Shown here: in pieces, positions 56,700 to 63,528 of the stretch | Position numbering within the stretch: the stretch's first letter is position 1 | How the letters are laid out: each line of letters starts with the position of its first letter | DNA from: Owenia fusiformis | Lineage: Eukaryota | Direction of reading: 5' to 3' | Assembly: GCA_903813345.2 (NCBI GenBank) | Contig: CAIIXF020000001.1 | Span: forward strand, 29,636,001 to 29,700,000 | Length of the DNA stretch: 64,000 nt | Position numbers and translations under genes: made by a program | The notes under the pieces: generated by a model | The model's input: only the letters and a program-made list of their open reading frames with translations | Databases searched by the model: none | Told to the model about the DNA's origin: nothing

Positions 56700-57832
56700 C
56701 AATATATATTTGAAAATAAGTCATTTGATATGAATGCCATGTTACCATCAATGTCAGGATTATAATTTTAGATAGGTTTCAATTGGATTCAGTCTTTTGC
56801 TTTTCATTTTGCCACATAAGGCTTAACATGGCATTCCCCTTTAAGCCTTCAAATTATCATTATACATTAAGCTAACAATACACAATTATACTACTACCTG
56901 TAGTTGAACATTCATTTTTGTTGTTATAAGTTTAGCTTCATGTATGTACAGTTTCTGTTAAGTAGGACTTAATTCAGACCCTCAACTAACACCCTTATTA
57001 GGATATATACATTACCCTTTGGCTCAGAGCTGCCTAGTACTAACTGTATAAATGAAATTAAAATGAACATTTATAAAGGGTAATATACAATATACATATA
57101 GGAAGATAAAACTTATTCAGCTGTCAACTTTTCCTCTCTTAGTTGCTTAAATGATTTGTTTTTGGAGTAGATTATGAAATATGGGGTAATATGTAGAGTT
57201 AACAGGGCTTAATGTCTGGTATGTACAGTGTATATTGATGGCCATTCAAGATATCTGAAACCTGTGACTTATCCCCCAGTTTAGTACAACAAGTGGATCA
57301 ACAGTTATATGGCAAATGGGACCAACCATGGCTGATTATACACCGACCACTTTAATCTACAATGGCCATATTTATCTTGTTTGAAAACTTAGATAAACAG
57401 ATTATGTCTCGACCTTATATAAGATTTCAGCATGGTTTCAAGGCCCAGCCAGAACATATGATATTAACACATGTTAGAAATACTTTTCCATTGAACAATG
57501 AAATGTGATATTGCATGTGGGCGGTCATTATGCAACACTATACAATTTGAACGCGGAGGCTGTAAACAGAAACAAGGGTCGCTATGGTCAGGGAAAAAGG
57601 CAAGGGAGAAACAGAAAAATTAGAGAAAATACTAGTCGAAGAATTTTAGTTGGGAGTAAAAGTAAAAAGACATATTGTTATAGTCTCTAACTTTTTTGTA
57701 GATGGCATTCAGCGATTGATGTTCACTGTTTGGAATTTGGCAGTTGGTGTCAATGCTTCGTTTTCCTTACTTTGGTCATGAAGTTTAATAAACTGAATTA
57801 GGGAAAATTGATGGAAAATTCAGAGCATTTAC

Positions 57833-58445
57833 TGTAACAAATTATTATCATAAAATATAATGTTGTGGCTCGTGTCGTCTAGTGGCAGTAACATAAAATG
57901 TTAGTTTGATTTCTATTTCTTTTATTGTTCATTGATTAATATAACTTTACATGTCCTAAGTAATTTCCTGGTTGTAACCGACTGATTATACTCTAAAACT
58001 CAACAACTGAATCTTACTCTGCAAAATCACACTGTCTCTAATCAACTCTAAAATCAACTTCACTGAGGCTACACAATTCTTATTTATATACAGCCTGTTT
58101 TTGGCAAAGAGCCAGGTTGGCAAATAGCCAACTGGCACCAGGCCAACTGGGCATAAAGCCAACTGGCACTGGGCCAAATGGATAAATAATCGAATATACA
58201 ATAAAAACATGGGTTCAAAGCAAGGGGAGACCTCCGACCACTCCAGGAAACCCACTAGATCAAAGTACTTATCTTTATTACAGTTGGTTTCCTAGAGGTG
58301 TGAAGTGACATGGATGGTCTTATGTAAAGTTACAATTAAATTGAATGATTAATCCCCAAGAGCAAATATGCATTTCAGTGATAACCCTCTCCCTATTTCT
58401 GAGTCAGTTTTAACCCCCTCCCTTTCCTTGACCATCTATGTTACA
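57833..58445 (-). repeat. 3' LTR
   Basis: Direct repeat of 61984-62596; one mismatch seen (A58062 vs G62213). Confidence 0.97.
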
Positions 58446-58460
58446 TTCTCCCCCTACTTT
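58446..58460 (-). promoter_or_regulatory. Polypurine tract
   Basis: Minus strand AAAGTAGGGGGAGAA immediately before the 3' LTR. Confidence 0.9.
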
Positions 58461-59146
58461 GTAATTATTTGTCCCAAATAAAATAAGGTATATAATGCAG
58501 TATACTTGCTGTTATAAATATACTTATGTACTTAAAAATAAACAACAGTGGATCAATTGACCAAACTATACCACTAAATGCAAACTTAAATTCCCAACAT
58601 TATAATATAATTATTCAATACCATTGACTGACCTTGAGCATCCTAATTAATTAAAAAAGTTTGTTTTTTTCTTCTTTTGAAACTTCTCAAAATGCTTTTG
58701 CTAGAATGCCTGTCTAATACTAAGCATAGAAACCACACTATCATCCAAGCACCCAATTACATTTAACCAAAGCTGCATTTGGCAATCAGACATTTAGGCA
58801 AATAAATCCTACAGACACAACTGGATCACCTTGTCAACCCATACTATATGCAATCCATATTGCGTTAACAACAAATTTTGAGTGACTCAACAAAAAGCTG
58901 TAGGAATAGTCATAAAAATATATCATAAATAGTGTATAGCTTGGAAATAGTCAAAATGCTTCTATCAGTCAAACCTATGACTGCTTACACTGTTCTAACC
59001 CATATCAATTTAAAGGCTCTCAAAACTTTTAAACATAAATACCAAGGCTCTATTGACCATATTCATAAAAACTACTGGCTTTTCCAGCCGTCACACATAA
59101 ATCGAAGGATCCCTTGACCCTAATAGTAATACACTTAAAAGCAACA

Positions 59147-59256
59147 GGCTCTCTTGGCCTTATCTACTTAAACTACATGCTCTCTTGGCCTTATCTACTA
59201 AAAACAAAGGCTCTCTTGGCCTCATATACTCTAGGCTCTCTTGGCCTCATATACTC
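59147..59256. repeat. Four copies of GCTCTCTTGGCCT in the LTR element internal region
   Basis: Copies start near 59147, 59179, 59209 and 59234, separated by short related spacers. Confidence 0.9.
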
Positions 59257-60894
59257 AAGGGTCACTTAGCCTATATTCATAATATCATCATAGTTTACAA
59301 ACAGCCTTTACATTACATGGAAAGAACAATGAATCTTTGTCTTTCAATATCACTACATTCAAGATTGCAACAAGAAGCCACTTGACAGAACTTTAACCAA
59401 GCTATACTTATCTAAAATATGAGATAAAGGTAAAAAGACACAGTCTCTTCCAACAAGTCCAAAATTCATCCTCATGTGACACATCAATGATTATAATTTG
59501 TAGGAAAAATGACATCACCTCCAGCATTTTTGCCAAAACATAACACTCCATAGATGTCTCCTTTTATAACAGCCTTGCAGTATTCCTCCATAATGTGCTT
59601 AAACTTGTCTATTATAATCCAATGATCCGTGATTCGAATATTTTAATCATAATTCCTGATGGAAGTGACATTTGTTGACACATTTGTTGAACAGTTATCC
59701 ATTCCAACAATATTTAAACAAAATAAATATGACCCATTTATCCCTATTCTGGCTGGGTACTATCCAAATGATCTTGATTTAATCCAAATCTCACAGCAAA
59801 TATAAATCCAGCATCAAATCATACAATATTTTGTACCATCATACTATATAATACATATTCATATTTTGTTGTCCTAATGTTGACTGGGTACCATCCACAG
59901 AAACTTGAGATAATCCAACTATTCACTGTAAGTTAAATAAATAAATCCAAATTCTCTTCTACTTGAACACGTGTAGATCAGGTGATGATTAAGTCCTGAG
60001 GTACAACAAATTATCAAGGAAAATGTAATGAAATGTATGATCCGCATAGATGAAAGGGTTTGAGCATCCAGTATAAGTCAGGGGATAATACACTTACAGC
60101 AAAGCCACAAATAAATATAAATATTAATTTAAATTGTAATGTTTGACTACTTGAGTGATTAAAAGTGACGGTCATAAACAGCAATAGATTGAACATCCAT
60201 ATTTGCTTTGGTATGGCCATAAAACAATCTAGTCCTTAAAGGTGCTATCAATTGCTAATCATATCACTTGTGTTAGCCCATAACTTTCCAGTTTATGACC
60301 TAATTGTTTATCAAATATCTGGGGTAAAAGTCATAAAAATGTTCTGAAATCAAACTGATGATTGAGATGTATGAAACACTGTTTGATTAGTACTAATTAT
60401 CCTTTGTTCCGTATCACTTTATCCACTCTTAACATATCACATAATAAACAGTTTATGGCTGATAGAAACCACACGATGTATCATTTTACGATTTGTGTCA
60501 AAGTCAAGCAGATACTTGATATCCAATATGTACAGTTTGATAGTAGTCATAATTATCCTCTATATTCTATTCTGTGTTTCCTGTCACAAATGACAATTTA
60601 TGACACATTATTGAACAGTTATCCATTTCAACAATATTAAAACACTATAATTAATGGCCTCTTCGTCTTAATACCATCCAAATACACTCAGTAGATCCAA
60701 ATAACAAAAACCACAAAATCTCTGCAATAGTAATATTGACGTTATCCTTCTACACACATTGTCACATAATGAAAAATCTCTAACAACAACAACAAGGTCC
60801 AATGTTCAGCCCATGGCGAATCATAACTAAAAATTAGAAGTAGCCTCAGAAGTTACAAAAGTCATACATTGTCAGTTCAAATATAATCCAATAT

Positions 60895-61896
60895 CTACAG
60901 TCCAATCGTTTCAACATTCATCCAACATCCGTTTTTCTCACATCCATTGTTGGGTTCTTTGTTTTTCGCATTATGCCACCCTCTGGCCATACGGGACTCC
61001 AGGGTCTCTACTGGTGAAGACCAACACTCATAGGTTATGGGAATAACATCTCCCATATAGTTTGCTCCCTTTTTAAGTTTTAGTCTTGTGACATGGTTGG
61101 TAGTGGACCAAGCTTTGTGAACAAGCCGTTTTACATGCTTATTCTTGCTTAGCTGGGCCGAAGGCTTGTTGCGTTTTTCCTTGTAGACTCGTAGACGTGG
61201 TTTGTTAACTCTTACTCGATTCTTCACTTCAAACGACTTCAGTGTTTTCTTTGCCATTATGGCTAATCCCCTCTGTGTTGCATATAATGTGTCCACAGGG
61301 GTAGTTTGCACTTGTGCCTGCATTACATGGTTTTCTTCTGATATAACATCATATTTCTCTGTGTCACTGTTTTCCAACAGAACCACCCCTGCCTTCTCTG
61401 TGTCGGACCTTTCTACTGTAGAGTTGTCGGAGTCTGCATTTATTGCATTGTGAGTTTCCAGCAAGTTTTGAGAGGGGCTCACATTCAATGTCTCATCTTC
61501 ACTGCTCATCTTGGCATCATGGCGAGTAAAAGCAGATTCAAATTTAGGTGAGGATGGAACGGCTTTACCCCCTGCATTACCACTGTTATTTTGTAAAGTG
61601 GCATTCAGTTCTATTCTGAGTCTACGTACTTCTTGGTCATACTCCTTTATCTCCATACCAATTTGTTTGCTCTTCTGGAAATGCTCATTACACTTTCTTA
61701 TTTTCTGATTGTTCATCTTCAGCCTGTTGATTTCCTCGGCCATACTGTTATACCTAATCCTCTGCTGTTTAGGAAATTCGTACAATTCTTCAAATAGGTC
61801 ATTTGCTTCCTTCAATTCTTTGGTTTCATTTTCAGTTAATACTTTTATTTTAGTTCCTAATTCGGTAATCCTAGTATTGATAACCGAGTCCTCCAT
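60895..61896 (-). CDS. Orphan ORF in the gag position of the LTR element (333 aa from first ATG): coiled-coil N-terminus, acidic linker, basic C-terminus
   Basis: Only long ORF in the window; ATG at 61896 lies ~70 nt after the PBS (track start at 61914 is GTG); E/K/L-rich first ~110 aa; no CCHC knuckle or protease motif seen. Confidence 0.75.
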   Translation of the reverse strand: MEDSVINTRITELGTKIKVLTENETKELKEANDLFEELYEFPKQQRIRYNSMAEEINRLKMNNQKIRKCNEHFQKSKQIGMEIKEYDQEVRRLRIELNATLQNNSGNAGGKAVPSSPKFESAFTRHDAKMSSEDETLNVSPSQNLLETHNAINADSDNSTVERSDTEKAGVVLLENSDTEKYDVISEENHVMQAQVQTTPVDTLYATQRGLAIMAKKTLKSFEVKNRVRVNKPRLRVYKEKRNKPSAQLSKNKHVKRLVHKAWSTTNHVTRLKLKKGANYMGDVIPITYECWSSPVETLESRMARGWHNAKNKEPNNGCEKNGCWMNVETIGL

Positions 61897-61964
61897 TTCT
61901 TGAGTTGTGTTCACTTTCTAACAGAAGGCTCCCAGATTCGTTTTTAAGAAAATATATCTATAAA

Positions 61965-61982
61965 ATCCTGGCAACGGCACCA
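61965..61982 (-). promoter_or_regulatory. Primer binding site, tRNA-His type
   Basis: Minus strand TGGTGCCGTTGCCAGGAT, 1 nt from the 5' LTR; 16/18 match to TGGTGCCGTGACCAGGAT, the complement of the invertebrate tRNA-His 3' end as recalled. Confidence 0.85.
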
Positions 61983-61983
61983 A

Positions 61984-62596
61984 TGTAACAAATTATTATC
62001 ATAAAATATAATGTTGTGGCTCGTGTCGTCTAGTGGCAGTAACATAAAATGTTAGTTTGATTTCTATTTCTTTTATTGTTCATTGATTAATATAACTTTA
62101 CATGTCCTAAGTAATTTCCTGGTTGTAACCGACTGATTATACTCTAAAACTCAACAACTGAATCTTACTCTGCAAAATCACACTGTCTCTAATCAACTCT
62201 AAAATCAACTTCGCTGAGGCTACACAATTCTTATTTATATACAGCCTGTTTTTGGCAAAGAGCCAGGTTGGCAAATAGCCAACTGGCACCAGGCCAACTG
62301 GGCATAAAGCCAACTGGCACTGGGCCAAATGGATAAATAATCGAATATACAATAAAAACATGGGTTCAAAGCAAGGGGAGACCTCCGACCACTCCAGGAA
62401 ACCCACTAGATCAAAGTACTTATCTTTATTACAGTTGGTTTCCTAGAGGTGTGAAGTGACATGGATGGTCTTATGTAAAGTTACAATTAAATTGAATGAT
62501 TAATCCCCAAGAGCAAATATGCATTTCAGTGATAACCCTCTCCCTATTTCTGAGTCAGTTTTAACCCCCTCCCTTTCCTTGACCATCTATGTTACA
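61984..62596 (-). repeat. 5' LTR
   Basis: Direct repeat of 57833-58445; contains several gccaactgg units; adjacent to the PBS. Confidence 0.97.
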
Positions 62597-63528
62597 TTAC
62601 ATTGTAAAATGTTGTGGCAACGCTGTAACTTAAACATGTATCATCAGGATTCAGGATGTTGAATTTACTTATTAAATACTCTTGAACATTTTCTTATTTA
62701 AACCCCTTTGGAGAAAATCAAATTCATTGTAGGTATTGCATTACTAACTATGCTTACATAAGGAATTTGATAAAACTGATGTTTTAAATCCCTTTGTATA
62801 GATTATGTATGTTCAAGACATCATGTGTAATATACTTGATATAATATGTAAGTAAATCAACTAATGGTAATATTCATGGATCAAGCCCTACATATCTACA
62901 TTCCTCCTTTTTTGTTCAACTTTGGTAATTATGATCAACTAATTTTTGAAATTTTCAAAATAAGGAATGATTATTTGTCCTTTGAAGATGCTGTGTTTCT
63001 AGTTTTTCATTTTGATTTGTTAACACTTGTGAAAATGATTAAAATATTTCCCATACAGTACAATAACTGGATTGGAAGATATAAAAGTTACAGTTGATAT
63101 GTCAAAGTTTTATTTACATTCATGTGATATACAATAAGAATCCAAATTGATAGTATCACTCATTCTAATCCCTATTAACTCTTCTCTAACCAAAGCTTTG
63201 TTGATATACTCCATTTTAGTTATCTATTAATGCTTCTGTAAATGTATTTCAGGTTGTAGGGGGAAGAGGGGATCATAGATACATGATGTATGTCCAATCT
63301 CAGGGTTTGGGACTATTTGAAGATGAAGATAACTGAATTTTTGGGCTAAAGTCGAGTCAATATTGTGACATCCAAGATCAATGTAATTTCATATTTTTGA
63401 CTTTTGTAGTAATGTATTGTGCTTTGTTTAGTCTAGCTACAACCCCTGGCCTTGTGACCCCCCTCCCCCACTACCCATCCCAATAAGTGTGAGGTGTGTA
63501 GTCAGGTAGATGGGGGAGGGGGGAGTCG

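Follow-up and report, generated by a model that had tools for sequence, protein, structure and literature searches.

Does the RNA of an LTR retrotransposon hold its primer tRNA at more places than the primer-binding site (PBS)? The question is raised by an element on the minus strand of the window, the whole stretch of 64,000 nucleotides that was analysed. An earlier note had described two U5 motifs complementary to tRNA-His beside a His-type PBS and had proposed that three separate parts of one tRNA are captured. Our best explanation, which we consider plausible although somewhat short of an even chance, is an extended primer-template pairing like that of HIV-1, Ty1 and Ty3, for which captured cDNA of tRNA-His was probably the seed. 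As part of this explanation, the element would be a non-autonomous LTR retrotransposon primed by tRNA-His, the tRNA with the best match to its PBS.

The element and its family

The 5' LTR (61984-62596, minus strand) and the 3' LTR (57833-58445, minus strand) are each 613 bp long with TG...CA ends, and their pairwise alignment showed 1 mismatch. Direct reading of the sequence gave a 4-bp target-site duplication, TTAC, at 62597-62600 and 57829-57832. The 18-nt PBS, TGGTGCCGTTGCCAGGAT (61965-61982, minus strand), lies 1 base (61983) off the LTR end, and a polypurine tract (58446-58459; element-strand sequence AAGTAGGGGGAGAA) adjoins the 3' LTR. The LTR pair, the target-site duplication, the tRNA-type PBS and the polypurine tract make the element structurally an LTR retrotransposon. 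An AAUAAA, likely the poly(A) signal, was read directly on the element strand at 62072-62077. U3 of the LTR (62253-62332; 58102-58181) contains three ~16-nt units in tandem that follow the pattern TGGCA...GCCAACTGG, and several tandem copies of a ~30-nt unit with GGCCAAGAGAGCC lie in the interior at 59130-59290 (minus strand). No other copies of the element were found within the 64-kb window, and no relatives of it in the window, the viral contigs or the fetched metagenome loci.

The element had been described as pol-less, and the coding search agrees. The sole long sense ORF inside the 3.5-kb interior encodes 340 aa (60895-61917, minus strand). A Pfam search of this ORF returned sub-threshold matches only, none of them at the cut-off, and no relatives were found at E<=0.001 among database proteins of 187-595 aa. 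The remaining open stretches in the sense frames of the interior are all 73 aa or shorter. Gag-pol coding capacity was not found in the element; with one orphan 340-aa ORF and no pol, it is non-autonomous.

The element belongs to a young family that is present in many copies and is transcribed. The k-mer depth in two DNA runs was ~10-19 times that of the flank in the interior and higher still in the LTR, depth not being the same as copy number. This depth peaked around the U3 tandem units, at up to ~6000 compared with 600-800 in the interior. Raw RNA reads on 60800-62700 numbered 259 and 209 in two runs, with the first mate mostly on the plus strand, which fits minus-strand, element-sense RNA. 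For the bin 61952-62015, RNA run X22 gave 11.6 with the first mate on the plus strand versus 0.5, and 16 and 7 RNA reads in the two runs crossed from the LTR end into the sequence adjoining the 3' LTR. Sense-strand transcription spans U5 and the PBS.

Two further features of the reads were observed. The RNA depth was ~3 at 61888-61951, between the PBS and the ORF start, versus 10-20 on either side; filtering, a variant copy and splicing are candidate causes. At position 61998 in U5, the window copy has A, whereas G was present in 16 of the 18 X22 RNA reads with the first mate on the plus strand and in all of the listed contig depth (4 contigs in X18 and 3 in X17), so the window copy departs from the family majority at that base.

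The U5 patch and tRNA-His

Read on the plus strand, 27 of the 31 nt at 62013-62043 are tRNA-His in sense, in three exact blocks (8, 11 and 8 nt long) with 1 base in common. Block A, GTTGTGGC (62013-62020), equals the anticodon loop plus 1 stem base (tRNA 31-38, 1-based). Block B, TCGTCTAGTGG (62026-62036), equals tRNA 8-18, comprising U8, C9, the 5' strand of the D stem and the D loop, and block C, GCAGTAAC (62036-62043), equals the anticodon stem's 3' strand together with the variable loop (40-47). The linker TCGTG (62021-62025) can be likened to the 5' acceptor strand of the tRNA with small indels, and its final TG would lengthen block B to 13 nt. The order of the blocks is permuted relative to the tRNA, with the anticodon loop followed by 8-18 and then by 40-47. 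The element RNA has minus-strand sense, and in it the patch is complementary to tRNA-His, with blocks A and B lying 30-54 nt upstream of the PBS. A 29-nt A+U-rich spacer (61984-62012), for which the minimum free energy (MFE) fold predicted a small hairpin, separates the patch from the LTR end. The AAUAAA at 62077-62072 would place the R/U5 border near 62050-62058, and hence its position, rather than cleavage-site reads, suggests that the patch is the very start of U5.

Blocks A and B are the two motifs noticed earlier, at exactly these positions. Block C is new beyond them and was found by an unbiased k-mer scan of 435 distinct tRNAs against U5 (among the matches listed). The patch has a second copy in the 3' LTR (57862-57892), where the LTRs are identical. 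The recurrence described in the earlier note is an exact 24-mer at 57862-57885; allowing up to 3 mismatches, this 24-mer matched at 2 places in the 64 kb, whereas 100 shuffles gave an expectation of 0. The 31-mer had 0 matches in the viral contigs. About 12-15 nt outside the 5' LTR, AATGTTGTGGC at 62608-62618 equals the patch start plus the three preceding bases, and this flank copy is followed by GGCAACG, also present in the PBS complement. We attribute it to chance, the local alignment of the flank with the PBS-LTR junction being at shuffle level (48/500); the flank had no repeat partner in the window.

All comparisons with tRNA-His used metagenome stand-ins, which may not equal the tRNA-His of the host. 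A metagenome scan with both earlier motifs plus ATCCTGG gave at least 117 stretches, and ARAGORN on these loci and on L001, a giant-virus MAG, called at least 1278 tRNA genes, at least 155 of them tRNA-His (49 distinct sequences). At least 1098 non-His eukaryote-type tRNA genes from the same contigs served as controls. Because blocks A and B served to pick out the panel His genes, their presence there is subject to ascertainment; neither block C nor the comparison with other tRNAs is affected by it. Among the matches listed, 154 of the 155 panel His genes contained block A, as expected from their ascertainment, and so did 20 of the 1098 others, all Ser. The block B 11-mer occurred in 150/155 and 0/1098, and block C, which was outside the fishing pattern, in 114/155 and 0/1098. 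The 9-nt core of block B, GTCTAGTGG, was found in 83 of the 1098 non-His genes (Glu, Asp, Gly and Pro; again among the matches listed). The presence of both motifs in tRNA-His, given in the earlier note for Drosophila-type sequences, is confirmed for the tRNA-His of L001 and for panel genes, and PMC11495624 shows the D-arm motif in the Drosophila pre-tRNA-His primer.

The PBS itself also indicates tRNA-His. TGGTGCCGTTGCCAGGAT occurs once in the window, and among the matches listed it has 2 mismatches in 15 positions to the commonest tRNA-His of the panel and 4 in 15 to the next-best tRNA kinds. The proposal of a His-type PBS with two mismatches is upheld by this match of 13/15, the best of all. 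Both mismatches fall in the acceptor stem of tRNA-His, and because acceptor stems vary widely across the 49 distinct panel His variants (among the matches listed), the host tRNA-His may match the PBS fully. A tRNA with a PBS-type 3' end was found in none of the collections scanned. The PBS-end 15-mer gave 79 matches in the viral contigs, 0 of them inside tRNAs; the D box combined with the PBS end gave 0 matches in genome contigs; and the anticodon box combined with the PBS end gave 1 match, in a bacterial contig and not in a tRNA, and 0 in the viral contigs. When the fetched metagenome loci (478 kb) were searched for sites resembling the PBS but lying outside tRNA genes, the 6 matches were all reversed tRNA-His genes. 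In the leader downstream of the PBS, the tRNA-His k-mers found were two 6-mers only.

A detail of the linker bears on the identity of the primer. TG at 62024-62025 agrees with acceptor positions 6-7 implied by the PBS (reverse complement of 61972-61978), so that a host tRNA matching the PBS would have a 5' strand ending in TG before the D arm, the same as the LTR before block B. Among the matches listed, TG precedes the D box in 1 of 155 His genes, that of L193 (484-557), which has an unusual acceptor stem and contains the 13-mer (TG plus block B); past its T stem, the 3' strand begins with CA, which is what the PBS implies for the host tRNA. It is suggestive that the PBS and the patch may point to one tRNA-His variant. 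The tRNA genes found in the window by ARAGORN and Rfam were two identical tRNA-Asp(GTC) genes only, which are divergent and 123 bp apart (51736-51807, minus strand; 51931-52002, plus strand). The metagenome tRNA clusters L163 and L188 contain a tRNA-Asp that is 3 nt different from these genes, and in a metagenome cluster with a tRNA-Asp 3 nt off that of the window, the tRNA-His carries all three blocks.

Runs of at least 7 nt that U5 has in common with the most frequent panel tRNA-His account for 26 of the 77 bases in U5 (among the matches listed). This coverage was reached by none of 5000 dinucleotide shuffles of U5, which had a maximum of 21, and by 1 of 5000 tRNA shuffles, and the antisense control gave 0. 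The complementarity to tRNA-His beyond the PBS that the earlier note had described is therefore above chance for the stand-in tRNA-His. Summed shared runs in U5 amounted to 27-28 for most His variants and to at most 12 for other kinds, with 15 for Tyr (among the matches listed); the other exception to the limit of 12 was one mis-called record containing a His gene.

Extended pairing and its rivals

In the extended pairing that we favour, the 3' end of tRNA-His would anneal to the PBS and the acceptor stem would open. The freed 5' strand and the D arm could then pair with the centre of the patch (8-18, and imperfectly on to the 5' end), and the anticodon and variable regions with its two flanks, while the 29-nt A+U spacer would loop out between the patch and the PBS. 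The unfolded tRNA would be kept on the template, which would favour the initiation of minus-strand DNA. The patch most likely originated as a captured piece of tRNA-His cDNA. We infer from sequence that the host tRNA-His has the blocks, that it would pair in this way and that the element would benefit.

An unconstrained cofold with a natural tRNA-His paired tRNA 1-22 with 62019-62039 in 19 bp, at a net gain of 11.2 kcal/mol, and preferred this region over the two-mismatch PBS. The tripartite primer capture proposed earlier is partly sustained, since three further parts of tRNA-His are matched and the 19-bp pairing of tRNA 1-22 is predicted; however, Pro and Ser tRNAs are nearly equal in energy. 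Several points stand against extended pairing. The blocks are permuted, and all three at once would need a crossed, pseudoknot-like topology; the central block is a generic tRNA 5' sequence; and neither a conservation signal among the listed variants, nor a tRNA with a PBS-type 3' end, nor a relative of the element for comparison was found in the collections scanned. A four-part grip, which we put forward tentatively and consider doubtful, would have the PBS hold the 3' strand of tRNA-His and, across the small U5 hairpin from it, the patch hold the 5' strand and D arm together with the anticodon loop and the variable region. Seeded by mature tRNA-His cDNA, such a grip could give a parasitic element the advantage over its autonomous partner in obtaining primer and reverse transcriptase.

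The main rival is that the patch is a neutral relic with no present role, tRNA-His cDNA having been built into an ancestral leader and having joined U5 as priming moved downstream. The route could be, for example, primer read-through in plus-strand synthesis together with template switches. We regard this as possible but rather unlikely. The whole 31 nt is tRNA-His-like, with two small acceptor indels and permuted segments, and it resembles rearranged copying more than designed pairing. The copies are also near-identical and give no sign of selection: at 80% likeness, two DNA and two RNA runs held no variant among those listed in 61999-62211, in or outside the blocks. Better conservation of the boxes than of their flanks, which the earlier note had set as a check, is absent, and the comparison is uninformative because the family is too young and its copies too alike. 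However, primer read-through in the established scheme of reverse transcription leaves the tRNA complement downstream, not upstream, of the PBS, so a relic would need extra events. The mismatches in the patch are also clustered in the 5-nt linker, whereas the 27 nt in the blocks are exact. Furthermore, well-studied elements use such contacts, as parts of PMC3185550 and PMC5371799 describe.

It is also conceivable, although improbable, that the patch is a generic tRNA-like or A-box-like sequence, or a product of chance, with no specific tie to tRNA-His. Among the matches listed, GTCTAGTGG and GTTGTGGC occur in non-His genes (83 and 20 of 1098, respectively), and in gapped local alignment on the central stretch His scored 27, one Gly-GCC variant 27 and Pro 25, with Pro aligning from its base 1. 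By these sequence comparisons, the D-arm box is less specific than first claimed. The hybridisation energies lead in the same direction. In one natural cluster, His, Pro-CGG and Ser-CGA formed best duplexes with U5 of -33.1, -31.7 and -30.7 kcal/mol, respectively, energies that 3-4 of 400 shuffles attained in each case, and over all tRNAs the best Ser duplex with U5 was -35.2 kcal/mol (among the matches listed). The median for the U5-only duplex nevertheless favoured His, at -34.0 kcal/mol (n=49) versus -22.9 for the others (n=365), again among the matches listed. The comparison against other tRNAs and shuffles suggested earlier thus gives His the best median, but Pro-CGG and Ser-CGA come within 2.4 kcal/mol of His.

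Four observations argue against a generic origin: the 26-nt coverage in 0/5000 shuffles; the restriction of block C and the block B 11-mer to His in the panel (among the matches listed); the identity of the best-covered tRNA with the tRNA indicated by the PBS (among the matches listed); and the lack of any tRNA model match at E<=10 in 61900-62200, the nearest B-box-like site being 327 nt away with 2 mismatches. The claimed specificity for tRNA-His thus gives a mixed picture: the coverage, the block B 11-mer and block C, which is His-only in the listed panel, favour it, but the 9-nt core is generic, GTTGTGGC is also found in Ser tRNAs, and neither duplex energy nor local alignment sets His apart from Pro, Ser or Gly. 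Nor is the patch a tRNA gene or pseudogene, or the head of a SINE: ARAGORN and Rfam called no tRNA there, and the B-box-like site is not at the 30-60 nt after the A box expected of a SINE head.

Another explanation, to which we give little probability, is a U5-PBS stem that gates primer access as in retroviral U5 stems; the tRNA likeness would then result from complementarity to the PBS, which would mimic the tRNA 5' strand. The MFE structure of 62080-61880 indeed pairs 62020-62030 with 61973-61983 across the spacer hairpin. However, this stem consists of 9 interrupted pairs, and the fold was no better than shuffles (z 0.25; 116 of 200 folded at least as well). Blocks A and C would also be left unexplained.

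Least probable, and in our view very unlikely, is a target or decoy for 5' tRNA-His fragments (5' halves, tRNA-derived piRNAs) that serves silencing or soaks them up: tRNA-His, through its 5' part, is among the major sources of piRNAs in Bombyx germ cells (PMC5587776), and the patch pairs with tRNA 1-22 in the cofold, but the first 7 bases, the small-RNA seed, pair imperfectly, and keeping a silencing site brings the element no gain.

Extended pairing with tRNA-His, if functional, would matter, since the contacts that a primer makes outside the PBS are known in detail for only a few retroviruses and yeast elements, and what they do is under debate. Long, exact and easily mutated blocks would make a clean system for primer choice and initiation, and could show whether non-autonomous elements compete for the machinery of a partner via such contacts. 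If the reading is true, it would also give an annotation rule, namely to look in U5 for blocks matching the tRNA to which the PBS points. Even if only a relic, the patch would still record tRNA cDNA built into an LTR. A literature search for tRNA-His-primed elements with extra pairing found none by title or by the start of the abstract, which is not proof that the observation is unpublished.

Comparison with known systems

We take the element to be a LARD/TRIM-type non-autonomous LTR retrotransposon. It resembles this type in having LTRs, a PBS, a polypurine tract and a target-site duplication without pol, and in being multi-copy and transcribed. It differs in that its 3.5-kb interior holds one orphan 340-aa ORF, and no partner element was found for it.

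Control by tRNA fragments offers a partial parallel. Small RNAs from primer tRNAs can pair with LTR-element RNA (parts of PMC7472051 and PMC5587776), and 3' tRNA fragments target LTR elements at the PBS, as described in a part of PMC7472051. In the targeting described there, 3' fragments act at the PBS, whereas the complementarity here lies in U5 and concerns the 5' part of the tRNA.

Ty1 has extra boxes that follow the PBS, and it is reportedly the subject of a paper by Friant et al. from 1996. The initiator tRNA-Met is the primer in Ty1 and Ty3, as opposed to tRNA-His here. In Ty1 the whole PBS is in U5, where a small internal loop divides it into two segments, and in Ty3 RNA the D arm pairs with U3, so that the primer is paired beyond the tRNA 3' end (part of PMC5371799). 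The likeness to Ty1 and Ty3 lies in a primer paired beyond its 3' end with the D arm included, as that part of PMC5371799 describes it. Ty3, however, has its extra sites at the opposite RNA end, in U3, whereas those of the present element are in U5 ahead of the PBS.

The closest counterpart of blocks A and C is found in HIV-1. There, U5 upstream of the PBS has an A-rich loop that pairs with the anticodon loop of tRNA-Lys3, nucleotides 142-148 pair with the 3' anticodon stem as well as the variable loop, and the contact set includes the primer activation signal (PAS), with roles that are debated (part of PMC3185550). The precedent for extended pairing that the earlier note had named is consistent with these anticodon and variable-loop contacts of HIV-1 and with the D-arm contact of Ty3 (PMC3185550 and PMC5371799). 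HIV-1 differs in using tRNA-Lys3 instead of tRNA-His, and the present element adds a long block for the D arm and 5' strand; its blocks adjoin one another, match exactly over 8-11 nt and are predicted from sequence. Blocks A and C nevertheless match the same two tRNA regions as the HIV-1 contacts and, as in HIV-1, lie upstream of the PBS in U5.
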